A stretch of 64,000 nt of DNA from Escherichia coli (GTDB lineage: Bacteria > Pseudomonadota > Gammaproteobacteria > Enterobacterales > Enterobacteriaceae), in NCBI RefSeq assembly GCF_044324875.1, contig NZ_CP172185.1; one strand, 5' to 3'. The notes under the pieces are model-generated. The model made no database searches. It saw nothing but the letters and a program-made list of their open reading frames with translations, and had not been told where the DNA came from. Positions 1 through 57,632 of the stretch are shown piece by piece; within the stretch, counting starts at the first letter, position 1; each line of letters opens with the position of its first letter. Made by a program: the position numbers and the translations under genes.

Positions 1-984
<984 letters not shown>

Positions 985-985
985 A

Positions 986-1720: not shown

Positions 1721-1755
1721 GCGGAAAAACTCCTGACTGACAAACTGTCTTTGGT

Positions 1756-1781
1756 TTATCGGTCACAGTTAACAAAACTTA
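1756..1781 (-). promoter_or_regulatory. Sigma-28 (FliA) type promoter upstream of ycgR
   Basis: Reverse complement reads TAAGTTTT-(11 nt)-CCGATAA, close to the FliA consensus TAAAGTTT-N11-GCCGATAA, about 35-60 nt upstream of the ycgR start; fits ycgR being a late flagellar gene. Confidence 0.7.
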
Positions 1782-1920
1782 ATACAAATGCGTGAATATT
1801 TTTTACATGTTGTTCTTAAATCAGCCGACATACGCCCAGCATCGATTCCGCCCTTGCCTATACTTAGAGCGTTGACGTAAGCATTTCTTGCGTCCGATTC
1901 ATCGAAACGAGGGCCTGAAC

Positions 1921-2175
1921 ATGGGAATTATTGCCTGGATTATTTTTGGCCTGATAGCCGGCATTATCGCCAAGCTAATCATGCCGGGGCGTGATGGTGG
2001 TGGATTTTTCCTGACCTGTATTCTCGGGATAGTCGGTGCGGTGGTCGGCGGCTGGCTGGCGACCATGTTTGGCATTGGCGGCTCCATCAGCGGTTTTAAT
2101 TTGCACAGCTTCCTGGTGGCGGTAGTGGGCGCTATTCTGGTGCTGGGCGTATTCCGCCTCCTGCGAAGAGAATAA
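1921..2175 (+). CDS. ymgE: Small inner-membrane protein, transglycosylase-associated (GlsB/YeaQ/YmgE) family
   Basis: ORF 1888..2175; the ATG at 1921 is preceded by GAGGG and gives an 84-aa glycine-rich two-helix membrane protein (MGIIAWIIFGLIAGIIAKLIMPG...). Confidence 0.85.
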   Translation: MGIIAWIIFGLIAGIIAKLIMPGRDGGGFFLTCILGIVGAVVGGWLATMFGIGGSISGFNLHSFLVAVVGAILVLGVFRLLRRE

Positions 2176-2187
2176 GATTTTCATAAG

Positions 2188-2220
2188 GCGGATAGCGATA
2201 CAGATGCCGCTATCCGCTTT
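2188..2220. terminator. Hairpin between convergent ymgE and the TonB-receptor gene (possible bidirectional terminator)
   Basis: GCGGATAGC (2188-2196) pairs with GCTATCCGC (2209-2217), followed by TTT; A/T-rich on the opposite strand. Confidence 0.55.
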
Positions 2221-2224
2221 CACA

Positions 2225-4195: not shown

Positions 4196-4220
4196 AGAAT
4201 AAATTCCGTTTAACAAAGAA

Positions 4221-5075
4221 TTAAATAGAGGCTGCGGGTTGCAGACTGACTTTAATGTCAGCTGGTGTCGCGTAATAAGGCGCGGAGGTAATAAAAAGGC
4301 GAATGCCGCAGTCGAGGTAATTTTTGAGTGTTGTCAGATTAATTCCACCGGTCAGAGCCAGCGTGCAGTGAGGAGCCAGCGACGGTGCTATTTGCGCAAT
4401 TTCAGTTGCCTGTTGCGGACTAAATTTGTCGAGCTGAAGTACGTCTGGTTGCGCGCGTAACGCGGCGATTGCCTCTTTCGGCGTGTCGGCTTCAACAACT
4501 ATTTTCTTCTCGGGTGCGTGGCGACGTAACTGATTGATTGCGCCTGACCAGTCCTGATTGTCATGAAGAAAATGACGGTGGTTGGCAAACAATAATATGG
4601 TTTCCGCACATCCGGCACGATGAATCAGTCCTCCGGCAGCCAGAATTGCCTGCGAGGCCAGTAAGCGGGTGCCCGGAATCGCTTTTCGGGTGCAGGCGAT
4701 ATTGCCATCAGGGTAACGTTCACGAAGTAACGCCAGCATTTGAGCGAGATAATCAGAAACACCGCAACTCCACTCCAGCACATTCTGGACTGCCTTCCAT
4801 CCCTGATGAAGTGCTGCGGCATTACCCTGCGCACGGATTAGCCGCTGACGCGCGTTCGCTTGTGAACCGTCGCTGACCGCGTCATCAATAGTTAATCCCA
4901 GCGTAGTTAACATCTTACACGCGACAGAAATTCCGCTGACGCAGCCGCCCTGACGGTGAAAAAACTCTATATAGCCATGCTGGTGTCCAATATTTAATGC
5001 TCGCGTGGTCAGGTCACCGCCCTGGATATCTTCCAGAAGTAACGCATCGATTTGTGCCTGAGAAAGGAAAATCAT
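4221..5075 (-). CDS. ModD-like protein (NadC / quinolinate phosphoribosyltransferase fold family)
   Basis: 284-aa ORF with blocks alignable by eye to NadC (…TRKAIPGTRLLASQAILAAGG…, …VVEADTPKEAIAALRAQPDVLQLDKF…). Family assignment is from motif recognition only, with no profile search. Confidence 0.6.
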   Translation of the reverse strand: MIFLSQAQIDALLLEDIQGGDLTTRALNIGHQHGYIEFFHRQGGCVSGISVACKMLTTLGLTIDDAVSDGSQANARQRLIRAQGNAAALHQGWKAVQNVLEWSCGVSDYLAQMLALLRERYPDGNIACTRKAIPGTRLLASQAILAAGGLIHRAGCAETILLFANHRHFLHDNQDWSGAINQLRRHAPEKKIVVEADTPKEAIAALRAQPDVLQLDKFSPQQATEIAQIAPSLAPHCTLALTGGINLTTLKNYLDCGIRLFITSAPYYATPADIKVSLQPAASI

Positions 5076-5884
5076 CGCAGTGCCTCTTGCGGTACGCTAT
5101 CCCACCAGATGAGCGCCCAGTCGCGGCTGGCAGGGGCGAGGGCACGAGCATCTTGTTGTTGATACCAGCGATATAACCGCTCACGCTCATCGTCGTTAAG
5201 TGCGCCCAGACTCCAGCTGACGTTCTGCTCAAAACGTTCCCAGGTGCTGTTATCCTGTTGGCAATTTTGTCCACGGATAAAATCAACGTGAGCATAAATT
5301 CCCATCTGATACAGGACGTTGAGCGCAAAGATATAGTTGGGTAATTCGATCACTTCCCGACCAGCCGCCCGCTGAATGGCTGGAGAGACGAACGAGGTGC
5401 TGACCAGATGAGTCGTATAGACGCGAAGCCGTGCCTGATTATTCAGTTTGCTCATTGCCTGGCGCATATCAGCCACCAGAGTGGAGCGGGAAGCCACGGC
5501 AATATCGCAGCGTGGCAGGTCACTCCAGTCCTCTTCCCAGGCGCGCTGGATCCAGTGGACATTGTCTGCCTTTAGCGCGGCGGCGCGACGGGCGGCAACC
5601 TTCAGCATCCCCTGACTGTAATCAACGCCATAAATCGTCGTGAGTTTGTCAGCCAGCGCCAGCGATACGGTACCCGGTCCGCAGCCCATATCGAATAAGG
5701 TCTGCGCGCCTTGCAGATCAATTTTAGCGGTCAGTTGTTGCAGGTAGCTGTCCGTAGGCGAGGCGCAATTTTCCGCCATTTTTTCCGCCCGTTGATCCCA
5801 GTGATCCGGCGTTTTTTCTGTGCGGTGGGCCAGTTTGAGTTGCTGCAGGTAAAGGTCCGCAAAATCAATATCATCAATGAGCAT
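5072..5884 (-). CDS. Class I SAM-dependent methyltransferase
   Basis: 270-aa ORF with the Rossmann motif I LFDMGCGPG and acidic motif II (IYGVDYS); start overlaps the ModD-like stop by 4 bp (ATGA), indicating translational coupling. Confidence 0.7.
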   Translation of the reverse strand: MLIDDIDFADLYLQQLKLAHRTEKTPDHWDQRAEKMAENCASPTDSYLQQLTAKIDLQGAQTLFDMGCGPGTVSLALADKLTTIYGVDYSQGMLKVAARRAAALKADNVHWIQRAWEEDWSDLPRCDIAVASRSTLVADMRQAMSKLNNQARLRVYTTHLVSTSFVSPAIQRAAGREVIELPNYIFALNVLYQMGIYAHVDFIRGQNCQQDNSTWERFEQNVSWSLGALNDDERERLYRWYQQQDARALAPASRDWALIWWDSVPQEALR

Positions 5885-5893
5885 GATTGTTCC

Positions 5894-6652
5894 TTAGTGG
5901 CTAATTGCAGAGAGGTGATGATGAATCTGGTCGGCAGAAACCCGATACAGGGCAGCCAGTTTGTTCGTTGTTAACTGTTCGGTCGGTAAGCCTTGTGTTA
6001 CTCGTCCATCTGGCTCTACCTGGATAATGCTGTCGGCAATGGCGTTGGCATGGAGCGGATGATGAGTCGACATTAGCATTGTCATGCCGTTATTTTTGAG
6101 CTGCGCCAGCGTGTCCAGTAGTTGGATCTGATGACCGAAATCGAGGCTGGAGGCAGGCTCATCCAGTAATAACAAGCGCGGTTGCTGGACGAGTGCACGG
6201 GCGATTAAAGCCAGCTGACGTTCACCGCCGCTAAGCGTATTCCAGCGTCGTGTCGCCAGATGCAAAATGCCCAGCTTTTCCAGTTGCTCCGTTGCTTTCA
6301 GGCGTTCTTGCTTACCGGGAACGGAAAAAGCGCCTATGGTGGGGGCCAGGCCCATCAACACCATATCCAGCACACTAAAAGCAAAAACGCCGTCGTGCGC
6401 CTGCGGCACCCAGGCAATAGCCTGCGCGCGTTGGCGATGGCTGAGTGTCTGCACAGGGAGGCTATCCAGTAAGATCTCGCCTTTTCATAACGGTATAACG
6501 CCAAGAATGGAGCGCATGAGTGTGGTTTTGCCGCAACCATTGGCTCCTAACAGACAACAAATTGTTCCTTGCGACAGGGTGAAGGACACGTCGCGTAGCA
6601 CCGGATGGCGGGAGTAACCCAGAGACGCATGACGGACGGCAAGCAAAGTCAC
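5894..6652 (-). pseudogene. ABC transporter ATP-binding protein (FecE/BtuD-like) interrupted by an in-frame TGA
   Basis: Track ORFs 6485..6790 (Walker A GANGCGKTTLMRSILGVIPL) and 5894..6454 (LSGGERQ signature, Walker B LLLLDEP) are in the same frame, separated only by TGA at 6485-6487 (complement). Read through, the sequence is contiguous (…ILGVIPL*KGEILLDSLPVQTLSHRQRAQAIAWVPQ…). The proposed GTG start at 6652 overlaps the permease stop (GTGA). Confidence 0.8.
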
Positions 6653-7629
6653 TGGCGACCTCCGCGTAACAACAAAAACAGGAAAAACGGTGCACCAACA
6701 AAAGCGGTCAGAATGCCAAGTGGGATTTCTGTTGTTCCAATGCTGCGTGCCAGCGTATCGGTAAGCAGGAGCAGAATCGCGCCAGTACACATTGCCATGG
6801 GCAACAGCTGCTGATGGTTATGACCGGTCAACAAGCGAGCAATGTGCGGAACGACCAGGCCGACCCAACCAATTATGCCCGCTATTGCTACCGTGCTGGC
6901 GGTGATTAGTGTGGCGCAGACAATTAATCCAAAGCGCAGACGTGTCACGTTCAGTCCCAGCGAACGGGCTTCGTCGTCGGAAAGCGTGAGTAAATTCATG
7001 CGCCAGCGGAGAAAAAACAGGGGCAAGGAGCCTATGAGAATGATCGGTGCAGCATAGCAGAGATCGCGTAAGGTCACGGTGGACAGCCCCCCCAGCAACC
7101 AGAAGGTAATTGACGGTAACTGGGTGTAAGGATCGGCCAGCGTTTTTATTAGCGATATCCCCGCTCCGCACAACGTTCCTAACGCAATGCCTACCAGCAC
7201 CAGGGTTAAGATCGGATCGTGGCGGGTCACCCGACGCGTAATCAACCAGACGCCCGCGACCACCATCAGCCCGCCGCAAAATGCGTACAGCTGGATGTAA
7301 ACAATGGATAATCCCCACAGGATTGCCGCGCAGGCACCAAGTCCGGCACCGGCGGAGACGCCTAAAATATCCGGTGACACTAAGGGATTACGGAACATTC
7401 CCTGATAGGTGGTTCCGGCCCCTGCCAGCGCCGCGCCCAGAAACAGCGCAGCAAGAATACGCGGCACGCGGATTTGCCAGAAGACAATTTGTTCCTGCAC
7501 AGGAACATTTTCTTGACGAAGAATGAGCGCCAGCAGTTGCTGTATATCGAGATGATAAGCCCCACTTACGGCGGCAAAAGTGATACTGATAGCTGCCAGC
7601 AGCAAAATACATCCGTTTACGGTTCTCAT
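6649..7629 (-). CDS. ABC transporter permease, FecCD/BtuC family
   Basis: 326-aa multi-helix membrane ORF typical of iron-siderophore/cobalamin-type permeases; start overlaps the binding-protein stop (ATGA). Confidence 0.85.
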   Translation of the reverse strand: MRTVNGCILLLAAISITFAAVSGAYHLDIQQLLALILRQENVPVQEQIVFWQIRVPRILAALFLGAALAGAGTTYQGMFRNPLVSPDILGVSAGAGLGACAAILWGLSIVYIQLYAFCGGLMVVAGVWLITRRVTRHDPILTLVLVGIALGTLCGAGISLIKTLADPYTQLPSITFWLLGGLSTVTLRDLCYAAPIILIGSLPLFFLRWRMNLLTLSDDEARSLGLNVTRLRFGLIVCATLITASTVAIAGIIGWVGLVVPHIARLLTGHNHQQLLPMAMCTGAILLLLTDTLARSIGTTEIPLGILTAFVGAPFFLFLLLRGGRQ

Positions 7630-8651
7630 TAGCTCGTCACCAATTTTTGATAGTCGGCGTCACTTAATGGGCAATGCCAGAACAGTTGGGCGTAATGCTG
7701 CATGTCACTTTTAAACTGGCGATTGATGGCGGGATCCAGCCAGGCGTGAAGTCTGCGTAATCCCAGAAGACGGTTGATTCCCGGCGGGGCATCCAGCCAG
7801 CCAAAGGGCAGGCCACTTAAAAATAAGATGCGTTGTTCCGCAACCGCTTTCACGCCCTGCCAGAGAGGATCACGACGAATAAAATCTGCAGTAACGGCCT
7901 CCTGAACCAGAATAATATCCGGCTGCCAGCGCAGGAGATTTTCCATGGAAACCTGTGTCAGACCGTGGCGATCGGCTATTTGCGCGACGTTATGCAAACC
8001 TAATAATTCCGCCGCCTCGGTATGCAACGAACCCTGTAAGCCCGTTTCCAGCCCTCGAGGACCGCGCGCAGCATAAAAGCTGAGGTTAGCGGCGGGTGAG
8101 GTGGCGAATGCCTGAGCTTCACCAACGAAGCGGCTGGCGAGATTGGCTTGTTCTGCGGCGCGGTGCTCTTCGCCTAACGTTTTGCCAAGCGTTGTTAACT
8201 GTTCTGCTGATTGTTCCAGTTTCCCGTTAAGCAATAACCAGGGTATTTGTGTCTGTTCGCTAACCTGCCGTGCCTGGGAGATCCAGGTTTCATCCGTATT
8301 GCCGCAATCAACGACCAAATCGGGATGTAACGCCATAAGCCCTTCCAGCGAGAGTGTGCTGGCGCGCCCGGCGAGTCGTCCCAGCCTGGGTAACTGGCGA
8401 ATGTGCTCTGGCAATGGAATTAATGCCTGACGGGCAAAATCAAAAGAGGAAAAACCGACCATTTTTTCTGGCGCGACAGCCAGCAATAGCAAATCGGCGG
8501 GCGCACCTGCGCTGACGATGCGTGTAATGTTTTGGGCTTCGGGAAGCGTCAGTGAGGCCCAGAATTTGACTGATTGTGCAAAAGAAGGCAGATGATGCAG
8601 GAACAACGTCGACGCAAGAATCTGTGTAAACCTCCGTCTGGTTAGTGACAT
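7629..8651 (-). CDS. Periplasmic substrate-binding protein of the ABC importer, with a twin-arginine-like signal
   Basis: 340-aa ORF; N-terminus MSLTRRRFTQILASTLFLHHLPSFAQS has T-R-R-x-F, a hydrophobic core and an AxA-like site; first gene of a six-gene minus-strand operon. Confidence 0.75.
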   Translation of the reverse strand: MSLTRRRFTQILASTLFLHHLPSFAQSVKFWASLTLPEAQNITRIVSAGAPADLLLLAVAPEKMVGFSSFDFARQALIPLPEHIRQLPRLGRLAGRASTLSLEGLMALHPDLVVDCGNTDETWISQARQVSEQTQIPWLLLNGKLEQSAEQLTTLGKTLGEEHRAAEQANLASRFVGEAQAFATSPAANLSFYAARGPRGLETGLQGSLHTEAAELLGLHNVAQIADRHGLTQVSMENLLRWQPDIILVQEAVTADFIRRDPLWQGVKAVAEQRILFLSGLPFGWLDAPPGINRLLGLRRLHAWLDPAINRQFKSDMQHYAQLFWHCPLSDADYQKLVTS

Positions 8652-8920
8652 AAGTTATATCCTGATAATTAAAACCGCTATATATTTACATATATATCGA
8701 AAAAAATCATGTTTGATGTCAAAATTTGTCTAAAGAGACAGAATGATTTGCTTGTTGCTTAAATAACACTTTGTTCCACAAGAAAATTGTCAGGGAGAAT
8801 GGCGGAGTGGCAAAAAATATAAATAGAGGTGTAATGATTAACAAATTGATAAAATAAAATTAAAATCTTCTCTGATAAAAGAAAATAAAGGCATAGACCG
8901 TAGAATGGGGGGCATTTCGT

Positions 8921-8967
8921 GGCGAAAAAAGAGCAATGCCAATTTTATGCACATAATGGCATTGCTC
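8921..8967 (-). terminator. Candidate intrinsic terminator downstream of treA
   Basis: Perfect 11-bp inverted repeat GAGCAATGCCA (8931-8941) / TGGCATTGCTC (8957-8967) with a 15-nt loop, followed on the minus strand by a T-tract (complement of GGCGAAAAAAGA). Confidence 0.6.
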
Positions 8968-8981
8968 GATATACAGCAAAG

Positions 8982-10679
8982 TTAAGGCGTAGGTTCCGCC
9001 TCTTTTTGTTTTACCGGCTGTGTTGTTGATTCACTGAGTGGACGCGTCGCCGGAACATTGTCACACGGTTGCTCTTTCGGGCAGAGCAAATCCAGCATTT
9101 TCAGCGTCACGCCATTGGTCCAGCCAAAGCCATCCTGTAATGGATATTCGCCACCGCCGCCCCCTGTTCCGGTGGTGCTGACATCATATTTCTCGACCAG
9201 CTTCTTCTCCCGGTCATAAGTGTGCTGAACATTGGTCAGGAAGTGCCAGCTAATGTCCATCGCCACCTCGTTCTGCCCGTAGTTTTGCAACCCTTCTGTC
9301 GCCACCCATTGCAGGGGAGCCCAGCCATTTGGCGCATCCCATTGCTGTCCACTTTTCACCGACGTGGTGTTCAGGCCGCCTGGTTGCAGCAGATGTGTTT
9401 TCGTCGCCGTCGCCATTTTGTTGGCGCGATCTTTCGCTGCCGCATTGACGTACAGCGGGAACAGGGCGGCAGCGGTTAACTGATTGCGCACTTTATGACT
9501 TTTCAGGTCGTAATCGGCATACCAGCCTTGTTGATCGTTCCACAGGTATTTTTCGATCCCTTTTTGACGGGCATTCGCCAGCGTTTCGTACTGGTTTGCC
9601 ATCGCGTTATCTCCGGAAGCTTTGCTGGCGCGGGCGAGGATTTTTTCCATTTTAAACATCAGGCTGTTCAGATCGACCGGTACGATGCTGGTGGTGCGTA
9701 AGGTATTTAACTGCTGCGGATTGTCCATCCAGCGCGAGCTGAAATCCCAGCCAGACGCAGCGGCAGAGCGCAGGTCGCGGTAAATTTCAGTGGCAGGTCG
9801 ATTCGGATTGCTTTTGGCGGTGGCAATATCTTCCACCCATGACTCTGGTCGTGGCGTATCGCGATCGTCCCAGTAGCGGTTGAGAAGGGTACCATCCTGA
9901 AGTTTTACAACGCGTTTTTCCTGTTGTCCGGCTTGCAGGTTTTCAACACCGTCCATCCAGTAAGCATATTCTTTTTGCATTTGCGGCAGGTATTGCTTCA
10001 ACGCGGCATCGCCTTCATGCTGCGCCAGTAACTCTACCATCAGGGCAAAGAAGGGCGGCTGCGAGCGACTTAAATAGTAACTGCGGTTGCCGTTGGGAAT
10101 ATGACCGTAAGTGTCTATTTCATGAGCAAAATTGGCCACCATATCCGCGACTTTATCCCAGTGACCGCTTTCGGCAAGCCCCAGCATGGTGAAGTAACTG
10201 TCCCAGTAATACACTTCGCGAAAACGTCCTCCCGGCACGACATAGGGTTCCGGTAACGGCAACAGAGAATCCCATTTCTCGGTACTTTCGGTAGAACGGG
10301 TTAACACCGGCCAAAGTCCGTCTATATGTTCGCGTAGTGATTGCCCCTCTGGCGGAACATATTTCTCGCCCTCTTTCGGCAGGGTGAAATTGACGTTAAC
10401 GAAATGGCGCAGATCAAATCCGCTCTGGTTTTGCTGCATCCGATAATCAGCAAGGATCATCAGCGGATCGCTGTTCGGCACGGCATCGGCAAAGGTTTTT
10501 TGGTCCGGAAAAAGTTTGGCGTTTTGCACATCATTAAACAGCGGCCCTAATAAAATATCAGGCGGCTGTGGCGTTACCGGTGTTTCTTCTGCCTGCACCG
10601 ATAGCGCAGCGAAACACAAAAAGATGCAGGTTGGAATTAACGCCATTTTTAGCGGGCGAGAAGCTGCGGGGGATTTCAT
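8982..10679 (-). CDS. treA: Periplasmic trehalase
   Basis: ORF 8982..10682; the protein ([32 protein letters not shown]…) is recognised as TreA with signal peptide. The start is placed at the second Met to match the remembered 565-aa protein. Confidence 0.93.
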
Positions 10680-10997
10680 CAATCATTCTCCTTTGGCGAA
10701 ACCGAATAAAACGGTATTCAAGTATCAGAAAACCTTAGTTCAGGATCGCACTAGCTGCATGATCGAAATCTCATTCTGCGAACGGTCAGGCATTTTAGAA
10801 AAGGGAATTAAAGGGATAAATAACGTCGAAATAGAGTGAACAAATAACGTCTGTTTGTTAGCCAGCCAGCGGCGTTGGGTTCGCGATTAGCGAAGAAAAA
10901 TCATCACAAATTGGTGAAAAATATAACAGGTAGTTAAAAACATCCGTGCAGAGTAAATAGCCGGATGACATCAGAACGATGCCATCCTAACTGTGGT

Positions 10998-12416
10998 TTA
11001 ACCCTGACGGCTGAAACGTTGCGTTTTAACGTCCAGCGTTAGCGTTTCTTCTGGTTGTATCGCATACAGTTTCTCACCCTGCTGGCAAATCCAGCCAATC
11101 CCCAGTTCACGGGCGATCAGGGCGCTGTGGGATAGCGGACTTCCGGCGCTAAGGCAGATACCTTTTACAACCGCCGGATCCAGTTGCAGTATTGTGGAGG
11201 GATAGATGTTCTCCGCCAGTAGAATAGTTGGCGAGTTAAACTGCGGGAGTTCTTCTTTCGTTTGGGTCAGGTGGACCAGGGTGCGATGCAGAAGATCGTC
11301 CACATCAATATAGCGAGCCTGTAGATATTCATCATCCAGTTGCTGGTATTGCTGGCTAAGTTCTTTAAGAACTTGCTGCCAGGCATATTCTGCCGTGCAA
11401 TGTTCATGCTGAAGGAGTTCGCTTGCCGCTGCCAGCAGTTCCGGATCATCTAACAGTGTATGGTGACCAGAAAAGATTGCGGCAATATCGTCAAGCCCGC
11501 TGGCTTCTGCTTTCGCTGTTAACGTCATCAGATCTAATAACGTGAAGTCAATGGCCTGGCGTAATCGTTCTTGTTCTTCATCCACGGTCAGGGTTGATTT
11601 TGCCTGTACCGTACATAAAACCGGTTGATAATAAAAGGTTTTACCCGAAACAGGCGGAACGGGACGCAGAATAGGTGGAGCAACTTCCTCCGTTTCACCA
11701 AAGTTATCTTCAGCCAGCTGACGGAAAGCGATCAGTGCCTCTTCAGCTTCTGGCCCTTTCGCAATCAGGCGCAGCGTATCGTTATAGCGAACTTGTAGTA
11801 ACGCAATCTGGTTAATACTCTCCGGTGTGACGCATTTGCCGTTTTTCTCCAGCAACATATCGGCATTAAATGTCGATAAGGTATAAACCAGCCGGGAGGC
11901 CGGACGTACATGCAGGCCGTTACGGTTTTTAATGACCACCGCCAGAGAACGGGCTTCTTCATCGTAGGCAGGACATGACTCAGAGATTTCAGTGTCGGAG
12001 GAGGGTAAACCCAGTTGTTCACGTTTGGCTTCCAGCGCATGCATGGCGTCAAAGATAACTTTGTCGATATCCGCCCCCGAGGCCGCGCTGACCGTTGCTG
12101 CCAGTGTACCTTCGACCAACGGCGCAGCACACAAACGTACTTTTGCGGCGATCTCGGGAGCCAGCAATTCCAGCGCAGTTTCAGCACTCAATAATGCGCT
12201 ACCCATATCCATCATGACCAGCACATGGTCGGCATCGGCAACAGATTCGATGGCCTCCATCACTTTGACGGCATCGGTACCAATGGGATTTTGTGGATCG
12301 TCAATTCCCGCGGCAATGGCGATTTTACAACTATCACTCATTAACATCTGACGGGCTAATTCACCGACACCTTCTCCCAGTCGGCTGCTATGTGAAACTA
12401 TGACCAGGTTTACCAT
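10998..12416 (-). CDS. dhaM: Dihydroxyacetone kinase phosphotransferase subunit DhaM (PTS EIIA-HPr-EI fusion)
   Basis: ORF 10998..12422; the sequence from MVNLVIVSHSSRLGEGVGELARQ… is recognised as DhaM. Confidence 0.92.
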   Translation of the reverse strand: MVNLVIVSHSSRLGEGVGELARQMLMSDSCKIAIAAGIDDPQNPIGTDAVKVMEAIESVADADHVLVMMDMGSALLSAETALELLAPEIAAKVRLCAAPLVEGTLAATVSAASGADIDKVIFDAMHALEAKREQLGLPSSDTEISESCPAYDEEARSLAVVIKNRNGLHVRPASRLVYTLSTFNADMLLEKNGKCVTPESINQIALLQVRYNDTLRLIAKGPEAEEALIAFRQLAEDNFGETEEVAPPILRPVPPVSGKTFYYQPVLCTVQAKSTLTVDEEQERLRQAIDFTLLDLMTLTAKAEASGLDDIAAIFSGHHTLLDDPELLAAASELLQHEHCTAEYAWQQVLKELSQQYQQLDDEYLQARYIDVDDLLHRTLVHLTQTKEELPQFNSPTILLAENIYPSTILQLDPAVVKGICLSAGSPLSHSALIARELGIGWICQQGEKLYAIQPEETLTLDVKTQRFSRQG

Positions 12417-12426
12417 CACCAATTCC

Positions 12427-13059
12427 TTACTCTTTTGCGGCTAACGCCAACATTTGCATCATAAACATCACCGAGGTCGCACCGGGGTCCTGGTGACCAA
12501 TACTGCGTTCACCGAGATAACTGGCGCGGCCTTTGCGGGCTTGCATCGTAATCGTACTTTGTGCAGCGGATTCGGCGATGCTACTGGCAGCTTCGAGCGC
12601 CGCCGGAACAGAGAGATTTTGCTCGCTGGACTGACGTAACGATTCCACCACCGGCACCCACACATCACACATGGTTTTATCGCCAGGTTCGGCTTTACCG
12701 CGACTGATTACGCCGTCCGCGCCATCGCGGAACATCTGATAAAGCTCTTCCAGCGTCAGGCTTTGCCGTGCCTGGGTCGCCTGTGCGGCGCGGATAAAGA
12801 AGGTACCGAAAAGCGGACCACTGGCACCACCGACGCTGGAAAGTAGCGTCATACCGGTATTCTTGAGAATGAAACCGATATCTTTATCTGCGATAGCAGG
12901 GAGTTTTTCCACCACTTTGCTAAAGCCTCGGTTCATATTTAGCCCGTGGTCAGCGTCGCCAATTTCGCGATCCAGTCCGGTAAGATACTCGCTCTCGGTG
13001 TTGAAAATATCGCCACAACGAGTGAGCCAGTTAACAATTTGAGTTCTGCTCAGTGACAT
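12427..13059 (-). CDS. dhaL: Dihydroxyacetone kinase ADP-binding subunit DhaL
   Basis: ORF 12427..13137; the internal Met start MSLSRTQIVNWLTRCGDIFN… gives a 210-aa DhaL. Confidence 0.92.
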   Translation of the reverse strand: MSLSRTQIVNWLTRCGDIFNTESEYLTGLDREIGDADHGLNMNRGFSKVVEKLPAIADKDIGFILKNTGMTLLSSVGGASGPLFGTFFIRAAQATQARQSLTLEELYQMFRDGADGVISRGKAEPGDKTMCDVWVPVVESLRQSSEQNLSVPAALEAASSIAESAAQSTITMQARKGRASYLGERSIGHQDPGATSVMFMMQMLALAAKE

Positions 13060-13069
13060 TGCTTTCTCC

Positions 13070-14140
13070 TTATTTACCCCAGTTAAGGGCCGGGGTGTGG
13101 ACCGGGGCGTCCCAGAGTGCCAGCGTTTCGTCATCAACTTTCAGTAAGGTGATTGAGAAACCGGTCATATCCAGTGAGGTGCAGTACGCGCCAATTAAAT
13201 TACGTTCGATAGTCAATCCTGCTTGCTGGCAACGTGTGGTCAGGCGGTTATAGACGCCGTATAGCTCAGAAAGCGGAGTTGCGCCAAGATTGTTAACCAG
13301 CGCAATCACCCGATCGCCAGACTGGAGCGGTTGCTTAGTTTGTGGTTCTTCCTGCCAGCTGCCTTGTTGATAATCCCAGAAACGCAAAGTGCGATGGTAT
13401 GAGCCATTTTCCAGCAGGGTGTCGAACATTTCATCGACGGTTTGATCAAGGGAAGAGAAGGGACGGCGGTCAATACCTGGCTCACCATGAATGCCGACGC
13501 CAAACTCCATCTCATTGTCCGCCAGGGTAAAAGAAGGTTTGCCCGCGGCAGGAACGGTACAGGCACCGAGAGCAATACCTATTGAGTGGCCTTGATTATT
13601 CAACTTACGCCCCAGTTCCGCACAGGCGTCCAGTGAGTCGCCACGCTCCGCCGCTGCGCCTACGAGTTTTTCAATTAATACGGTGTTGGCAACGCCGCGC
13701 CGCCCGGCGGTATAAAGACTGTCTTTTACTGCAACGTCGTCATCAATGACCACAGTGGTCACTTTTACGCCGCTATCGTGCAGTAACTCGGTTGCTGTTT
13801 CGAAGTTAAGAATATCGCCGGTGTAATTTTTGATAATCAACAGTACACCTTCGCCGCCATCAATTTGCATGGCGCATTCAAAGATTTTATCGGGCGTCGG
13901 TGAGGTGAAAATTTCGCCCGGACAGGCCCCCGAAAGCATCCCCTGACCGATATAACCACAATGCATCGGCTCGTGTCCGCTACCGCCACCCGACAGCAGG
14001 GCGACTTTTCCTGCAACGGGGGCATCAGCTCGGGTGACATACACCGGATCCTGGTGCAGTATCAGCGATGGATGCGCTTTCGCCAGTCCTGCCAGTTGTT
14101 CGTCCAGTACGTCTTGCACATCATTGATCAATTTTTTCAT
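13070..14140 (-). CDS. dhaK: Dihydroxyacetone kinase dihydroxyacetone-binding subunit DhaK
   Basis: ORF 13070..14170; the start at MKKLINDVQDVLDEQLAGL… gives a 356-aa DhaK. Confidence 0.92.
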   Translation of the reverse strand: MKKLINDVQDVLDEQLAGLAKAHPSLILHQDPVYVTRADAPVAGKVALLSGGGSGHEPMHCGYIGQGMLSGACPGEIFTSPTPDKIFECAMQIDGGEGVLLIIKNYTGDILNFETATELLHDSGVKVTTVVIDDDVAVKDSLYTAGRRGVANTVLIEKLVGAAAERGDSLDACAELGRKLNNQGHSIGIALGACTVPAAGKPSFTLADNEMEFGVGIHGEPGIDRRPFSSLDQTVDEMFDTLLENGSYHRTLRFWDYQQGSWQEEPQTKQPLQSGDRVIALVNNLGATPLSELYGVYNRLTTRCQQAGLTIERNLIGAYCTSLDMTGFSITLLKVDDETLALWDAPVHTPALNWGK

Positions 14141-14367
14141 TATTTTGCTCCAGCAATTACGGTAGGGCATGGATGATGTTCAACGACACGGCGACCACTG
14201 ACTGCCGATGAATCCATTGTGCATCAGGCAAGGGAAAAGAAAATTAGCCCAAATTATGTTTCATAGTGAAACATATTCTTTAATGAATGTTCCATATTGA
14301 AACTTTTACGTGTATTAATACTTAAAATTGCGAGCCGGAACACCTTTTGTCATAAGGGATGCGGGAT

Positions 14368-16287
14368 ATGAGTAGCGCTTTTAACAACGATGGTCGGGAC
14401 ATATCTCCCTTAATTGCAACCTCCTGGGAGCGATGCATTAAGCTGATGAAACGGGAGACATGGAACGTACCACACCAGGCCCAGGGCGTGACATTTGCGT
14501 CTATTTATCGGCGTAAGAAAGCGATGCTGACGCTCGGGCAGGCTGCGCTGGAAGATGCCTGGGAATATATGGCACCGCGAGAGTGTGCGCTGTTTATCCT
14601 CGATGAAACCGCCTGCATTCTCAGCCGTAATGGCGATCCGCAAACCTTGCAGCAGCTAAGTGCACTGGGATTCAATGACGGCACGTATTGCGCCGAGGGA
14701 ATTATTGGTACTTGTGCGCTATCGTTAGCGGCTATCTCTGGTCAGGCCGTGAAAACGATGGCCGATCAACATTTCAAACAGGCACTCTGGAACTGGGCCT
14801 TTTGTGCAACGCCGTTGTTTGACAGCAAGGGCCGATTGACGGGAACAATAGCGCTGGCGTGTCCGGTTGAGCAAACTACCGCAGCTGATTTGCCGTTGAC
14901 GTTGGCAATCGCCCGAGAGGTCGGTAATTTACTGCTGACGGACAGTTTGCTCGCTGAAACTAACCGTCATTTAAATCAACTTAATGCCCTGTTAGAAAGT
15001 ATGGATGATGGCGTGATTAGCTGGGACGAGCAGGGTAATTTGCAATTTATCAACGCCCAGGCGGCGCGGGTCTTGCGCCTTGACGCGACGGCAAGTCAGG
15101 GAAGGGCAATCACTGAACTCTTAACGTTACCCGCCGTATTGCAACAAGCAATAAAACAGGCACATCCGCTCAAACACGTAGAAGCAACCTTTGAAAGTCA
15201 GCACCAGTTTATTGATGCGGTGATAACCCTTAAACCGATAATAGAAACGCAGGGAACCAGCTTTATTTTGTTGCTCCATCCTGTGGAACAGATGCGGCAG
15301 TTAATGACCAGTCAATTAGGAAAAGTCAGCCATACTTTCGCTCATATGCCACAAGAGGATCCGCAAACCCGCCGCTTGATTCATTTTGGTCGCCAGGCGG
15401 CGCGCAGTAGCTTTCCTGTCCTGCTTTGTGGAGAGGAGGGCGTGGGCAAGGCACTGCTAAGTCAGGCAATTCATAATGAAAGCGAGCGTGCAGCGGGGCC
15501 TTATATTGCCGTCAATTGTGAGTTATATGGTGATGCGGCGCTGGCGGAAGAATTTATTGGTGGCGATCGCACGGATAATGAAAATGGCCGTCTGAGTCGG
15601 CTGGAACTGGCGCACGGCGGCACGCTGTTTCTTGAAAAGATTGAATATCTGGCGGTGGAGTTACAGTCTGCTTTGCTTCAGGTTATCAAGCAGGGTGTTA
15701 TCACGCGACTGGATGCGCGGCGATTAATACCCATTGATGTCAAAGTGATTGCCACAACGACCGCGGACCTCGCAATGCTGGTGGAACAAAATCGCTTTAG
15801 TCGCCAGCTGTATTACGCGCTGCATGCATTTGAAATTACCATCCCGCCTCTGCGTATGCGGCGTGGCAGCATTCCGGCGCTGGTGAATAACAAATTACAC
15901 AGTCTTGAAAAACGCTTCTCTACGCGGCTGAAAATTGATGACGATGCCCTCGCTCGCCTGGTTTCCTGTGCATGGCCTGGCAACGATTTTGAACTTTACA
16001 GCGTCATCGAGAATCTTGCTCTGAGTAGTGATAACGGGCGCATTCGCGTCAGTGATTTACCTGAACATCTGTTTACCGAGCAGGCGACAGATGATGTCAG
16101 CGCCACCCGCCTTTCCACCAGTCTGTCATTTGCGGAAGTTGAAAAAGAGGCAATTATTAACGCAGCCCAGGTCACAGGCGGTCGCATTCAGGAAATGTCG
16201 GCTTTACTTGGAATCGGCCGCACTACGCTGTGGCGGAAAATGAAGCAACATGGCATTGATGCAGGGCAGTTTAAGCGCCGGGTATGA
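14368..16287 (+). CDS. dhaR: Sigma-54-type transcriptional activator of the dha operon (GAF-PAS-AAA+-HTH)
   Basis: ORF 14359..16287; the ATG at 14368 has the better-spaced RBS; AAA+ motifs (GEEGVGKALLSQAIH, GAFTGA-like region) and a C-terminal HTH; divergent from dhaK. Confidence 0.92.
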   Translation: MSSAFNNDGRDISPLIATSWERCIKLMKRETWNVPHQAQGVTFASIYRRKKAMLTLGQAALEDAWEYMAPRECALFILDETACILSRNGDPQTLQQLSALGFNDGTYCAEGIIGTCALSLAAISGQAVKTMADQHFKQALWNWAFCATPLFDSKGRLTGTIALACPVEQTTAADLPLTLAIAREVGNLLLTDSLLAETNRHLNQLNALLESMDDGVISWDEQGNLQFINAQAARVLRLDATASQGRAITELLTLPAVLQQAIKQAHPLKHVEATFESQHQFIDAVITLKPIIETQGTSFILLLHPVEQMRQLMTSQLGKVSHTFAHMPQEDPQTRRLIHFGRQAARSSFPVLLCGEEGVGKALLSQAIHNESERAAGPYIAVNCELYGDAALAEEFIGGDRTDNENGRLSRLELAHGGTLFLEKIEYLAVELQSALLQVIKQGVITRLDARRLIPIDVKVIATTTADLAMLVEQNRFSRQLYYALHAFEITIPPLRMRRGSIPALVNNKLHSLEKRFSTRLKIDDDALARLVSCAWPGNDFELYSVIENLALSSDNGRIRVSDLPEHLFTEQATDDVSATRLSTSLSFAEVEKEAIINAAQVTGGRIQEMSALLGIGRTTLWRKMKQHGIDAGQFKRRV

Positions 16288-16386
16288 AAGACAGAAACGA
16301 TTTCTGATACATCAGAGTGATCTGTATTTCATTCCGGCGCACGCTAACAATTTTCAGCATCGTTTAAGGGCTTGTCTATCCCGCAC

Positions 16387-19254
16387 TTAAAAGCTGAATC
16401 GATATCCTCCGTTGACTTGCTTCTGATCAAAGAGGTTACCCTGCGTGTAATCCGCTTCGAGATAGAATGTGTGCTGTTTGTTATACTGTGCACTGACTCC
16501 CACGCCGTTATTCCAGCCATTACCTTTGAAACTGTACTTCTCCCGGGAGTTGTTCAACAGATATTCGGTATCCCCTGAAAACTCGCGGATAGCGCCAGTC
16601 TTCACATAGACATTCAGCTGGCTGTTGCCTGCGGTGATGTCATATCCCAGTATCATGCTGGCACGCCCCAGCAGCGATTCGTAGTGATTCAGATGTATAT
16701 TGAGGCCATTACTCGCCTTCATAGCCATCTCATTCTGGTGGCTGTATGTGAGCTGGGTTTGCGGCTCTATATAGAACCCATAACCAGTAGGGGTCAGGTT
16801 GAACCTCTGCCCGGCTTCCAGGGCGATACTCATTCCATTCGCAGTGCCGTTGGCATTAACGCCGTTGTTCTGACTGTCCAGTACGTGGAAACTATTTTTC
16901 TGGCGTGATGCTTTTACAACGAGATCGCTGTAAAAACCGCTGTGTGCCATGTAACTGGCGTACATTCCCATGTAGTCTGAACGTGCGGTACCGTCGCCTC
17001 CGCTATAGTCCGGCGATGCATGTGTTGAGCCAATATACAGACCGACATACAACGGCATTTCATCAGAGAGACGTTTATCCCCACCAAACTGGATACCGCT
17101 GTAACCCATGTCAAAGCCGCTCAGTTTGCCACTGGCAAAGGAGTCCAGGCTTCCCCCATAACTGCGCAACCAGATATTACCGTCTTTACTCTGATTTCGC
17201 AGGTCACCCATCCGTTGCATCAGCGTACGGTTTTCAACATAGTTCAATAAGTAACCGACATTGAGATAATTGCCGCCAGCATCTGCAGTCGTGGTGGGTT
17301 TAGGCGTGGGAGCGGGGGCAGGCGTAGGATCGGGGTTGACTATGGGAGGCTGAGCGGGAGCTGGTGTGGGTTCAGGATTAGGAGTCGGTTCCGGAACTGT
17401 CCCGGAAGCGTAAAGCTCCCAGTTAGTGCCATTTTTACGCACATCGTACAGATATCCCCCCAACTCAACCTGAGAAGACGCGCTGAACGAGGCCGCACCG
17501 TCAGTGGTTTTTACCACTGTCAGAACTTCATTTCCCGTTGTGGCCTCGCTGCCCTGGTTGCGGATAGCCAATACGTGATTACCAGCACTACTCCCGCTGA
17601 TATTCAATAAATCCCCTTTATTATTAACGCCATTACCCTCGCCAACAACATCAGCACGCATAATAAAGGTACTGTTACCGCTCAGGTTCTCTACGTTTAA
17701 TGTGGTAAATGTGCCGGCAGTTGACCCGTGGCTGGCAAAATCGACAGTTGAATGGCTCAGCGCCAGCGTGTCGAGATTAGAATTACTTGTTACGTTCCAG
17801 ACGCTGTTATTCATTGCAACGTCCAGTTTCCCGCCATTGACATTATCGCTGAGGGAAGAACCTGTCCAAACCGACCCAGGGTGCATATCCAGATTGATTA
17901 GCCCACCTTTGGAAAGAACGCTACCGTTGATAAGCATACGACCCGAGGCGTTGATGCGGCTGGCGGCATAACCATCGTCATGTTGCGTTGCGATGGCCAT
18001 CTGGTCGGGTGTACTCATATCAATGACCAGATCGCTCGTGAGGTCGATCTGGCTGTTGGTCATGGCATAAATTCCCCTGGCTCCTGCCGCGCCGGTGATA
18101 GCCAAACTGTCTCCGGTTATTCTACCGCCGCTGAGCGCCCACAAACCCAGCGCCAGACTGCCATTACGATCAACCGTAATATCGGTATTTTGCATGTTGA
18201 CAACAGCCGTTGCCGTCTGGGCTGAGGCACCATAAGAACCGCTGGAAAAGATGCTGTTTCGTTGCGCTGCCGTGCCAGAAAAATTGATTGTCGCGTCTGA
18301 ACCACTGGTTACGAGGCCACCGCCCTGCGCGGAAGAAATATGGCTATCAGCACCGATAGTGGTTGTACCACCACGAACTTCGACGCCATTTGCCGCGGCT
18401 CCAGTTACATCAACAGTGAGTGCATTCGCGCTCACCTGGCCAAAGCTCCAGAGGCCGTGTGCATTATCGCCATTGGTTTTAATGGTACTGTTTGTTCCGA
18501 GATCGACAACAGAGTTTTTCTGTACGTTTATCCCCATGGCGCTGTAGCCCTGAACATCGATTGTCAGGTCTGTCGCCGTAAAACGCGCAGCACCATTGGC
18601 GTTATTGCCGTTGAGACCACCGATATAAACACCTGTACTTCCATCGGTCTTGATTTTACTTCCGCTTCCAAGATCGACACTGGTGCCATAGTCATTGATT
18701 GTTAGGCCTATACCGTTCGAGTTTTCAATGGTGAATTGAGTGGCTGTTAGTGTTGAGCTATGTCTAATAATGATGCCGTCATCGTTACTCTTAATGGTGC
18801 TGCCTGTGCCTAAGTCAGCATGGGTATAGTCACCAATTAAATTAATGCCGATGGCAGAGGTTTGACCAACAACATCTACTGTAAGTCGGTTAGCTGTCAG
18901 GGAGCTGTTCTTGCCCTGAATAATGATTCCCTTTGCATATCCAGAGGCGTCGTTGACATTGACGGTGACATCATTACCCAGGTTGATATTGCCAGGCGTG
19001 TTTCCTGCTGGGGTCATTACACCATAGAGGTTTCCTGATGGATCGGCGGTATCTCCTGTAATTCTGTCACCATCATTAATAGTAATATTGGTGCCATTTT
19101 GACTTCCTAAATCAGCAGCTATCAGCAGGGGGGAAAAGATAATTGCATTCAAACCAATAGCGCCATATTTTATCAGTTGAATGGAGGGCGAACGGATTTT
19201 TAATTCAGCGAGACGATCGGCTTTGGTATTCCCATTGTGTTGTTTGATGCCCAT
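16387..19254 (-). CDS. ycgV: Autotransporter (type Va) adhesin-like protein
   Basis: 955-aa ORF with a signal region, a long Gly/Thr/Asn-rich beta-helical passenger, a Pro/Thr-rich linker (PEPTPNPEPTPAPAQPPIVNPDPTPAPAPTPKPTTT) and a C-terminal beta-barrel ending …GGYRFSF. Confidence 0.88.
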   Translation of the reverse strand: MGIKQHNGNTKADRLAELKIRSPSIQLIKYGAIGLNAIIFSPLLIAADLGSQNGTNITINDGDRITGDTADPSGNLYGVMTPAGNTPGNINLGNDVTVNVNDASGYAKGIIIQGKNSSLTANRLTVDVVGQTSAIGINLIGDYTHADLGTGSTIKSNDDGIIIRHSSTLTATQFTIENSNGIGLTINDYGTSVDLGSGSKIKTDGSTGVYIGGLNGNNANGAARFTATDLTIDVQGYSAMGINVQKNSVVDLGTNSTIKTNGDNAHGLWSFGQVSANALTVDVTGAAANGVEVRGGTTTIGADSHISSAQGGGLVTSGSDATINFSGTAAQRNSIFSSGSYGASAQTATAVVNMQNTDITVDRNGSLALGLWALSGGRITGDSLAITGAAGARGIYAMTNSQIDLTSDLVIDMSTPDQMAIATQHDDGYAASRINASGRMLINGSVLSKGGLINLDMHPGSVWTGSSLSDNVNGGKLDVAMNNSVWNVTSNSNLDTLALSHSTVDFASHGSTAGTFTTLNVENLSGNSTFIMRADVVGEGNGVNNKGDLLNISGSSAGNHVLAIRNQGSEATTGNEVLTVVKTTDGAASFSASSQVELGGYLYDVRKNGTNWELYASGTVPEPTPNPEPTPAPAQPPIVNPDPTPAPAPTPKPTTTADAGGNYLNVGYLLNYVENRTLMQRMGDLRNQSKDGNIWLRSYGGSLDSFASGKLSGFDMGYSGIQFGGDKRLSDEMPLYVGLYIGSTHASPDYSGGDGTARSDYMGMYASYMAHSGFYSDLVVKASRQKNSFHVLDSQNNGVNANGTANGMSIALEAGQRFNLTPTGYGFYIEPQTQLTYSHQNEMAMKASNGLNIHLNHYESLLGRASMILGYDITAGNSQLNVYVKTGAIREFSGDTEYLLNNSREKYSFKGNGWNNGVGVSAQYNKQHTFYLEADYTQGNLFDQKQVNGGYRFSF

Positions 19255-19547
19255 ACCACTCCTATATAGTACCCAGGCTATGGGTCTATGGATTTTGTCA
19301 TTTTGTTTAAGTCAATGAATAATATCCTCTTATCATCATGATATTTGTATGGTGCTATCATGATGAGCTGCTCTGAGAATAATTCTCTATTACCGGGCAA
19401 AATCAGGAACACAGGAATTAATATATATTTAACATCCCCCTTACAAAGGTGAGTTTAGATCGAGTTATTCCCTAAGTTGTCGTTACTTATTCCAATTCGT
19501 TACAATGAATATGACAAAAACATTACAACAAACAGCGGTTAAATAAT

Positions 19548-19802
19548 TTGGTGAATATTTTTGGTAATAATCCTAATTGGTTATGGGATTTTCGCTTGAT
19601 GTATCTGCATAACAAAAACAATATGAGCCATTTTTGCATTACTAATAAGAAAAAGCAAAAAACATCGATATTCATTTTTGATCAATGGATTTTCTGGCAT
19701 ATCGTTATTATCGTGATACTGGTTATCATTTTCATCTTGCCAGGATCGCACGTAATCACGTTATTCGGGGATTTTATCTGCGGGATATTACCCTTCAGGT
19801 AA
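19548..19802 (+). CDS. Hypothetical small hydrophobic protein (84 aa) in the AT-rich ycgV-ychF intergenic region
   Basis: ORF-track entry only; the product has a long hydrophobic stretch (IFWHIVIIVILVIIFILPG). No obvious RBS and a very AT-rich context, so it may not be expressed. Confidence 0.2.
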   Translation: MVNIFGNNPNWLWDFRLMYLHNKNNMSHFCITNKKKQKTSIFIFDQWIFWHIVIIVILVIIFILPGSHVITLFGDFICGILPFR

Positions 19803-20014
19803 GTCCTTTTCTCGCCAGCATATTGGAGCGTGATCAATATTGATCAGCTGTAAAAAGGTGTCTGATGTGCAGTGGAACACAAACTTACGTTATCTCATTG
19901 CTAATGAGATATCCCTCATCTGAACACTTATGTCTTTAATTATTCTCGTGGTTCACTATAGGCAATAAGCACAAAAGTGTAGGATGTTATAAGAATGGTT
20001 AGGACTCGGTGAAA

Positions 20015-32459: not shown

Positions 32460-32994
32460 GGATACAAAAAGGGCCGCAGGCTGTTACCCCTGCGGCCGGT
32501 TTCGGGCGCATATTGCCATCACGGCAGCCTGACGCCCGTTTTCACCTTACTTCCGGTTACGCCACCAGCTGACAATCACTGCGGTAATAATCCCCGCCAG
32601 GATCGGTGCCGCCAGGTCGTGCCAGAAAATCATGGCAAACTGCGCGAGCGTCATATAGCCGCCTTGTTGTAATGACAACAATTTGCGGCTATTCTTGAAT
32701 TGTTCTGGTTCAAGATTAGCCCCCGTTCTGTTGTCAGGTTGTACCTCTCAACGTGCGGGGGTTTTCTCTTTCCAGCAACCAATGCCACCAGGGATAAAGC
32801 CCCCGCAACATTGCGCCTCACCGGATAACGCCGGCTTGGTGTGGATACTACGACTCAATTCATCTTCACTTCATCCCTGAAATGTTTGCAATGAAGAGTG
32901 CATTCCGGTTTTTCAACAGCTGTTACAGTCGTTTCATGAGTGCTCTGAATGATGCTTCCAGCTCGGGTTGCCAATATTTACTTGTGGAAGAGAT
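32460..32994. repeat. Long direct repeat unit 1 (Ldr/Rdl type I toxin-antitoxin module)
   Basis: A ~535-bp unit repeated nearly identically at ~32995-33530 (e.g. AAAAAGGGCCGCAGGCTGTTACCCCTGCGGCCGGTTTCGGGCGCATATTGCC at 32461 and 32996). Each unit contains a 35-codon ldr ORF on the minus strand. Confidence 0.85.
32547..32654 (-). CDS. ldr: Ldr-family small toxic membrane peptide (35 aa)
   Basis: Reverse-strand ORF MTLAQFAMIFWHDLAAPILAGIITAVIVSWWRNRK, recognised as an Ldr toxin; too short for the ORF track. Confidence 0.8.
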   Translation of the reverse strand: MTLAQFAMIFWHDLAAPILAGIITAVIVSWWRNRK

Positions 32995-33530
32995 AAAGAC
33001 AAAAAGGGCCGCAGGCTGTTACCCCTGCGGCCGGTTTCGGGCGCATATTGCCATCACGGCAGCCTGACGCCCGTTTTCACCTTACTTCCGGTTACGCCAC
33101 CAGCTGACAATCGCTGCGGTAATAATTCCCGCCAGGATCGGTGCTGCCAGGTCGTGCCAGAAAATCATGGCAAACTGCGCGAGCGTCATATAGCCGCCTT
33201 GTTGTAATGACAACATTTTGCGGCTATTCTTGAAGTGTCTGGTTTCAAGATTAGCCCCCGTTTTGTTGTCAGGTTTTACCTCTCAACGTGCGGGGGTTTT
33301 CTCTTTCCAGCAACCAATGCCACCAGGGATAAAGCCCCCGCAACATTGCGCCTCACCGGATAACGCCGGCTTGGTGTGGATACTACGTCTCAATTCATCT
33401 TCACTTCATCCCTGAAATGTTTGCAATAAAGAGTACATTCCGGCTTTTCAACAGCTGTTGCAGTGGTTTCGTGCAGGTTCTGGTACAGGCTCGCAATTCT
33501 GATTAACAACCTGTTCAGGTAGTATGAAGA
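32995..33530. repeat. Long direct repeat unit 2 (Ldr/Rdl type I toxin-antitoxin module)
   Basis: Second copy of the ~535-bp unit; a handful of substitutions relative to unit 1. Confidence 0.85.
33082..33189 (-). CDS. ldr: Ldr-family small toxic membrane peptide (35 aa), second copy
   Basis: Reverse-strand ORF MTLAQFAMIFWHDLAAPILAGIITAAIVSWWRNRK; differs from copy 1 by one residue (V to A). Confidence 0.8.
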   Translation of the reverse strand: MTLAQFAMIFWHDLAAPILAGIITAAIVSWWRNRK

Positions 33531-49430: not shown

Positions 49431-49964
49431 GTGATGGTGGTTGGGGAAGGATTATTCAGCGCTGCGCGCTTCACCCTTCGGGTCGTTGCCTGCGGCAACG
49501 CTCTCTCGCTGGCGCTCGAGTCGAACCTTGGTCGAAGCTTCTCATCCTTCCCCGCTTGGGCAGAATATTTAATTACGGATTCGTTTGAGAGTTCAGGGAC
49601 TTTTGAAAGTGATGGTGGTGGGGGAAGGATTACTCAGCGCTGCGCGCTTCGCCCTTCGGGTCGTTGCCTGCGGCAACGCTCTCTCGCTGGCGCTCGAGTC
49701 GAGCCTTGGTCGAAGCTTCTCATCCTTCCCCGCTTGGGCAGAATATTTAATTACGGATTCGTTTGAGAGTTCAGGGACTTTTGAAAGTGATGGTGGTGGG
49801 GGAAGGATTACTCAGCGCTGCGCGCTTCGCCCTTCGGGTCGTTGCCTGCGGCAACGCTCTCTCGCTGGCGCTCGAGTCGAGCCTTGGTCGAAGCTTCTCA
49901 TCCTTCCCCGCTTGGGCAGAATATTTAATTACGGATTCGTTTGAGAGTTCAGGGACTTTTGAAA
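49431..49964 (-). repeat. Three tandem 178-bp repeats downstream of tRNA-Tyr (rtT-type units)
   Basis: Units begin at 49431, 49609 and 49787 (exact 178-bp period); units 2 and 3 are identical, unit 1 has a few substitutions. Each begins with a copy of the tRNA-Tyr 3' end (TGGTGGTGGGGGAAGGATT). Confidence 0.85.
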
Positions 49965-49968
49965 GTGA

Positions 49969-50053
<85 letters not shown>

Positions 50054-56575: not shown

Positions 56576-56808
56576 TAAGAATTTCTTTACTGACAGGGTG
56601 AGCAGGGCGCTTTTATCCTGTCAGTTCGTTTTACTCACTTCATCCGGTGTATATACCCTTCTCGACAGTTCTTTAACGCCACTATACCCCTCACAGAGCG
56701 CTTTTACAGTGACGTTGACTTGTGGACCTGTAAAGTACAATATCGCTGTGTGTAGGCGTTATACATCGCCGTAAATATGATGAAGGCAAATGCGGTAATG
56801 ACTCCAAC

Positions 56809-57312
56809 TTATTGATAGTGTTTTATGTTCAGATAATGCCCGATGACTTTGTCATGCAGCTCCACCGATTTTGAGAACGACAGCGACTTCCGTCCCAGCC
56901 GTGCCAGGTGCTGCCTCAGATTCAGGTTATGCCGCTCAATTCGCTGCGTATATCGCTTGCTGATTACGTGCAGCTTTCCCTTCAGGCGGGATTCATACAG
57001 TGGCCAGCCATCCGTCATCCATATCACCACGTCAAAGGGTGACAGCAGGCTCATAAGACGCCCCAGCGTCGCCATAGTGCGTTCACCGAATACGTGCGCA
57101 ACAACCGTCTTCCGGAGCCTGTCATACGCGTAAAACAGCCAGCGCTGGCGCGATTTAGCCCCGACATAGCCCCACTGTTCGTCCATTTCCGCGCAGACGA
57201 TGACGTCACTGCCCGGCTGTATGCGCGAGGTTACCGACTGCGGCCTGAGTTTTTTAAGTGACGTAAAATCGTGTTGAGGCCAACGCCCATAATGCGGGCA
57301 GTTGCCCGGCAT
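56809..57312 (-). CDS. insB: IS1 transposase InsB
   Basis: 167-aa [61 protein letters not shown]…. Confidence 0.92.
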
Positions 57313-57506
57313 CCAACGCCATTCATGGCCATATCAATGATTTTCTGGTGCGTACCGGGTTGAGAAGCGGTGTAAGTGAACTGCAGTTGCCATGTTTTAC
57401 GGCAGTGAGAGCAGAGATAGCGCTGATGTCCGGCGGTGCTTTTGCCGTTACGCACCACCCCGTCAGTAGCTGAACAGGAGGGACAGCTGATAGAAACAGA
57501 AGCCAC
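57231..57506 (-). CDS. insA: IS1 protein InsA
   Basis: 91-aa [46 protein letters not shown]…; overlaps insB in the -1 frame. The A6C slippery run is visible as GTTTTTTAA on the plus strand (~57248-57256). Confidence 0.92.
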
Positions 57507-57602
57507 TGGAGCACCTCAAAAACACCATCATACACTAAATCAGTAAGTTGGCAGCATCACCGGCAAATGCTGTCGGTTTATGGGAAAGTTGCTTTGGGTA
57601 AA

Positions 57603-57632
57603 ACAAAAAAACGGCCCCAGAAGGGACCGTTT
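57603..57632 (-). terminator. Intrinsic terminator downstream of adhE
   Basis: Plus strand AAAAAAACGGCCCCAGAAGGGACCGTTTA: a stem-loop with a T-run on the minus strand, ~25 nt past the adhE stop. Confidence 0.7.

Follow-up and report, generated by a model that had tools for sequence, protein, structure and literature searches.

The tdk–adhE locus and its surroundings

The window, as we call the whole 64-kb stretch of Escherichia coli DNA analysed here, shows ordinary core-genome synteny, running from dha, treA and ychF through nar, tyrT, hns, tdk and adhE to ychE and oppA. Its best identity to any member of a set of 5,426 complete E. coli genomes from RefSeq was 99.2–99.7% over stretches of 20–25 kb. 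Positions 19701–64000 were colinear with strain GTEN_97, except for the IS1 described below and an IS200C found only in GTEN_97, and positions 1–20000 were colinear with ETEC4068. With a single IS in 64 kb and this colinearity with E. coli, a Shigella origin seems unlikely.

A tRNA-Tyr gene (49969–50053), the sole tRNA detected in the window by ARAGORN, is followed by three tandem RtT repeats (49435–49566, 49613–49744 and 49791–49922) on the minus strand. GTEN_97 is likewise single-copy at this locus, where in K-12 tyrT and tyrV stand in tandem. Two rdlD-type antitoxin RNAs (32702–32767 and 33237–33302, plus strand) point to two copies of the ldr/rdl type I toxin–antitoxin system, and the IS200C of GTEN_97 (locus L005, 12893–13351), which the window lacks, lies beside the ldr/rdl array.

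The genes tdk and adhE are convergent, and without the IS1 the non-coding spacer between them measures 303 bp (Table 1). The adhE terminator hairpin has a predicted folding energy of −23.2 kcal/mol (z = −3.4), and the tail after its stem reads TTTTTTTGTTTT. The hairpin after the tdk stop codon, likely the terminator of this gene, has a weak, modestly T-rich tail (CAGTTCGTTTT), and no T-tract is present when it is read in the antisense direction. An Rfam scan of the tdk–adhE spacer found no RNA family. The centre of the spacer (about 56640–56715) differs far more from one phylogroup to the next than the ends do, and near position 56724 the window carries one extra G relative to all four aligned strains (TTGTGGACC versus TTGTGACC).

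Table 1 Features of the tdk–adhE region, in window coordinates unless another locus is named.
Feature	Position	Strand	Basis
tdk (thymidine kinase), intact, 205 aa	55958–56575	+	Pfam TK; annotated homologues
Hairpin after tdk stop codon, likely tdk terminator	56589–56625	+	Fold, −20.5 kcal/mol, z = −3.5
Left target-site duplication copy, GGCAAATGC	56785–56793		9-mer single-copy at the NRZ14408 and GTEN_97 empty sites
IS1 (IS1A family), complete, 768 bp	56794–57561	− (transposase genes)	Length and alignment to K-12 IS1A
IRR, right terminal inverted repeat, tdk side	56794–56816	−	18/23 match to IRL
insB' reading frame	56809–57312	−	Predicted to be frameshift-joined to insA, giving the 232-aa InsAB' transposase
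insA, 91 aa, GTG start	57231–57506	−	Identical to K-12 InsA; Pfam PF03811 and PF12759
A6C (AAAAAAC) programmed −1 frameshift site	57249–57255	−	IS1 positions 307–313
Sigma-70-like site, CTGCCA-16-TATGAT	57554→57527	−	Sequence match, inside IRL
IRL, left terminal inverted repeat, adhE side	57539–57561	−	Overlaps the promoter-like site
Right target-site duplication copy, GGCAAATGC	57562–57570		Direct reading and repeat search
adhE intrinsic terminator, 10-bp G+C-rich stem (57632→57609) and T-tract to about 57599	57599–57632	−	Fold
adhE, intact, 891 aa	57656–60331	−	ORF; annotated homologues
ISZ remnant of other strains	K-12 locus L008 2927–3906; L006 863–1857; L007 4561–5708		Compared with window 57609–57632

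A complete IS1 element in the spacer

The spacer is occupied by a complete IS1. Direct reading and a repeat search of the window gave exactly the length of IS1, the right end (GGTAATGACTCCAACTTATTGATAG...) beginning at 56794 and the complement of the left end (...ATCAGTAAGTTGGCAGCATCACC) closing at 57561. The ends of IS1 elements are imperfect inverted repeats of about 23 bp that start with GGT(A/G)ATG. Both ends found here are of this kind, IRL (GGTGATGCTGCCAACTTACTGAT) and IRR (GGTAATGACTCCAACTTATTGAT) agreeing at 18 of 23 positions as in canonical IS1. Since the transposase genes lie on the minus strand, IRL faces adhE and IRR faces tdk. We take the sigma-70-like site inside IRL to be the insA promoter, which is known at this position of IS1.

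A predicted −1 slip at AAAAAAC would join insA to insB' and yield the 232-aa InsAB' with no stop interrupting it. This product carries the Zn_ribbon_InsA, HTH_Tnp_IS1 and DDE_Tnp_IS1 domains, all with scores well over the curated Pfam cut-offs: 69.9 bits for PF03811, 98.4 bits for PF12759, and 260.7 bits for PF03400, DDE_Tnp_IS1, which was matched over its full profile (1–131). The sequence-only reading had described a 768-bp, untruncated element with insA, insB and the A6C frameshift motif, and this description was confirmed in each part. Together with the 9-bp duplication described below, the length, the ends, the insA/A6C/insB' layout and the three domains are structural characters of the IS1 family.

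Target-site duplication and the empty site

Identical copies of the 9-mer GGCAAATGC abut the two ends of the element, as had been proposed from the sequence, with a start-to-start spacing of 777 (768 + 9). Insertion of IS1 duplicates 9 bp of the target, or sometimes 8. Three occurrences of GGCAAATGC were counted on both strands of the 64-kb window, compared with 1.47 expected by chance, and its mere presence in the window is unremarkable; the chance of identical 9-mers abutting both ends of the element is about 4^-9, or 4e-6. The target has an AT content of 55–60%, compared with 49.7% for the window, in loose and only mild agreement with the known preference of IS1 for AT-rich targets.

The empty site was reconstructed by removing the IS1 and one 9-mer, and the joined flanks were searched against the 5,426 complete E. 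coli genomes. NRZ14408 matched best, with 99.9% identity over 1,019 bp in one unbroken alignment and no gap at the junction. Local alignment of the 384-bp spacer region gave 99.7% identity to NRZ14408, and both NRZ14408 and GTEN_97 have continuous flanks with GGCAAATGC present once, exactly at the junction. More distant strains have GGCTAATGC in place of GGCAAATGC. The IS1 target (between query positions 509 and 510) was crossed unbroken in every match listed except the last, H40, which ends at query position 421. Coverage of the empty-site query reached at least 80% in 4,082 genomes, a number that does not tell how many spacers are free of an IS, because the search joins pieces split by ISZ, the element of about 1 kb treated below.

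The element arrived by simple transposition and nothing was rearranged, as the sequence-only reading held: the empty-site alignment is unbroken, and the 9-mer is single-copy in NRZ14408. Composite transposons, deletions, inversions and recombination between copies are commonly mediated by IS1, and the element might in principle mark one side of a composite transposon or be what one of these events left behind. The probability of such an origin is negligible, given the identical 9-bp repeats at both ends, flanks colinear with relatives to left and right, and a 64-kb window that contains one IS1 and no IS1 fragment. Within the window, both a composite transposon and a rearrangement mediated by IS1 were accordingly rejected, and a second IS1 bracketing foreign DNA is excluded by colinearity, on the right to position 64000 and on the left to position 1. 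In the favoured course of events, a standard IS1 of the IS1A family would have entered the 303-bp tdk–adhE spacer by simple transposition, duplicating the 9-bp target GGCAAATGC and interrupting no gene, promoter or terminator.

Distribution of the insertion

None of the 5,426 complete E. coli genomes carries an IS1 at the exact tdk–adhE site. A query containing the IS1 was covered to at least 80% in two of them, both with the element at other positions, namely between hns and tdk in BE2-5 and inside tdk in B-LamR. No other genome of the set had an IS1 within roughly 1 kb of the spacer, so that among sequenced isolates the region is no hotspot for IS1. Neither genome_contigs, a collection with one genome per species, nor metagenome_contigs contained the 27-nt left junction, and a literature search on IS1, tdk and adhE yielded no insertions other than those on the side of tdk facing hns. 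As far as the searched collections show, the insertion is real, simple and unique, and it is specific to one strain or lineage.

B-LamR is a lamivudine-resistant laboratory derivative of E. coli B in which the IS1 splits tdk in two (locus L004, 1002–1756). A nucleoside kinase was there inactivated by IS1 under nucleoside-analogue selection, in contrast to the probably harmless position of the element in the window.

A distribution of this kind might also arise if the insertion had happened recently, in the laboratory or in culture, or were an artefact of assembly, instead of belonging stably to a natural lineage. No further genome or metagenome contig among those searched showed the insertion, and IS1 is highly mobile, B-LamR having gained its copy in the laboratory. 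However, misassembly would not leave a complete element between perfect 9-bp repeats, and the set of complete genomes includes nothing closely related to the lineage, as the best identities given above indicate, so that absence elsewhere would be expected even for an old insertion. We therefore consider a recent or artefactual origin unlikely, and favour an insertion carried by the natural strain or lineage.

The junction between GAAGGCAAATGC and GGTAATGACTCC is clean and unique, and can be used as a PCR or read-level marker of the strain or lineage; the suggestion that the IS1 might serve as a strain marker is thus supported by the absence of IS1 from this site in the complete genomes. Apart from this use, the insertion is of little significance, being one more IS that landed, probably without harm, between convergent genes, and it raises no new biological question, IS1 ranking with the best-characterised mobile elements.

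Position relative to the two terminators

Both neighbouring genes are undisrupted, in agreement with the earlier placement of the element between intact convergent genes. Because adhE is read on the minus strand, its terminator precedes the IS1 and is situated between adhE and the element. In the direction of adhE transcription, the right-hand 9-mer lies 38 bp past the hairpin, close to the 40 bp first estimated, and about 28 bp past the T-tract. On the opposite side, about 168 bp separate the tdk hairpin from the IS1. With the IS1 beyond both terminators, the tdk and adhE transcripts should stop before reaching the element.

It had also been suggested that the IS1 could affect 3'-end formation. 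This part of the sequence-only reading was weakened: such an effect is unlikely for adhE, since the IS1 lies past its terminator, and weakly possible for tdk. The strong adhE terminator would also shield IRL from read-through, and all that the element could conceivably send to a neighbour is weak antisense transcription that crosses IRR and enters the end of tdk.

A regulatory role for the insertion might involve an effect on the 3' ends or the stability of the tdk or adhE mRNA, antisense transcription into tdk, or a change in the H-NS-bound chromatin around hns–tdk. Consistent with such a role, the IS1 lies close to the adhE hairpin, its IRR end is directed toward tdk, the tdk hairpin offers no T-tract to antisense transcripts, and IS1 or IS3 insertions in the hns–tdk interval altered hns expression in evolved MG1655 (PMC9948715). 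On the other hand, the element is located past a complete adhE terminator, with stem and T-tract, and well past the tdk hairpin, while the hns promoter is more than 1.4 kb away with the whole of tdk in between, and the insertion does not recur in the 5,426 genomes as selection might be expected to make it do. The IRL promoter of IS1, moreover, is weak and repressed by InsA. We regard it as very improbable that the IS1 measurably changes local expression, whether by antisense transcripts that run from insB' through IRR into tdk's 3' end, or through H-NS-bound DNA structure. If it did, the insertion would be adaptive rather than neutral.

The best explanation, to which we assign a probability of roughly 0.93, is thus an ordinary strain- or lineage-specific insertion of an IS1A-family element by simple transposition, past both terminators and most likely neutral. 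What was directly observed is the element's anatomy, the 9-bp duplication, the relatives' empty site and the lack of such an insertion elsewhere in the searched collections; neutrality is judged from position, the IS1 being most likely a neutral passenger because it is located past both terminators. Some points speak against neutrality. The T-rich tail of the tdk hairpin is weak, so that part of the tdk transcription could run on as far as IRR; any IS1 transcript continuing outward past IRR would run antisense to tdk; and IS insertions on the other side of tdk, in the hns–tdk neighbourhood, have measurable effects (PMC9948715).

Comparison with known insertions and IS1 copies

In K-12 and many other strains, the same tdk–adhE spacer contains ISZ (insZ pseudogene, IS4 family), and there too tdk and adhE are intact. 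ISZ differs from the IS1 of the window in belonging to another family, in being a decayed, frameshifted remnant of about 1.0–1.15 kb, and in being widespread rather than unique. It is inserted into the loop of the hairpin that terminates adhE, about 50 bp nearer adhE than the IS1 target, with CCCAGAAGGG duplicated on both sides. In strains with ISZ, the adhE-proximal half-stem is followed by sequence of the IS end, so that the adhE terminator of these strains is a hybrid. The window is without ISZ, and its adhE terminator hairpin is uninterrupted. The carriers of ISZ include K-12-like and B2 strains, and the element is annotated also in IGC_RcoliRes_1.1 and UM146.

A second comparison is provided by IS insertions on the other side of tdk. 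Evolved MG1655 repeatedly acquired IS1 and IS3 between hns and tdk, in association with raised hns expression (PMC9948715). These strains and the natural strain BE2-5 share with the window an IS1 in the same three-gene neighbourhood; in them, however, the insertions are in the divergent promoter region between hns and tdk, whereas the IS1 of the window lies 3' of tdk, past the terminators.

The element itself was compared with IS1A of K-12 MG1655 (NC_000913.3, 19796–20563), to which it is identical at 765 of 768 nucleotides, the two aligning position for position with three substitutions and no indels. They are alike in length, ends and insA/A6C/insB' layout, and their InsA proteins are identical. 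The only difference in InsAB' is at residue 130, an Arg in the window and a Ser in K-12. Arg-130 is the state in the commonest variant of the IS1A family, which matches the window copy at 767 of 768 nucleotides and has an identical transposase, the single differing base (window position 57001) being synonymous. IS1 copies annotated in RefSeq with the transposase WP_103215986.1 likewise encode a protein identical to the InsAB' of the window; as with K-12 IS1A, their genomic location differs. E. coli ET625 and TUM9803, among others, have copies identical over all 768 nucleotides at sites unrelated to this one, and a plasmid also carries an IS1 with 100% DNA identity. Given that the identical sequence thus occurs elsewhere, at differing sites of other strains and also on a plasmid, and that all parts are intact, the copy in the window is apparently competent for transposition. 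In every respect tested it is a canonical element of the IS1A family, in which both the element and the mechanism of its insertion are already known.
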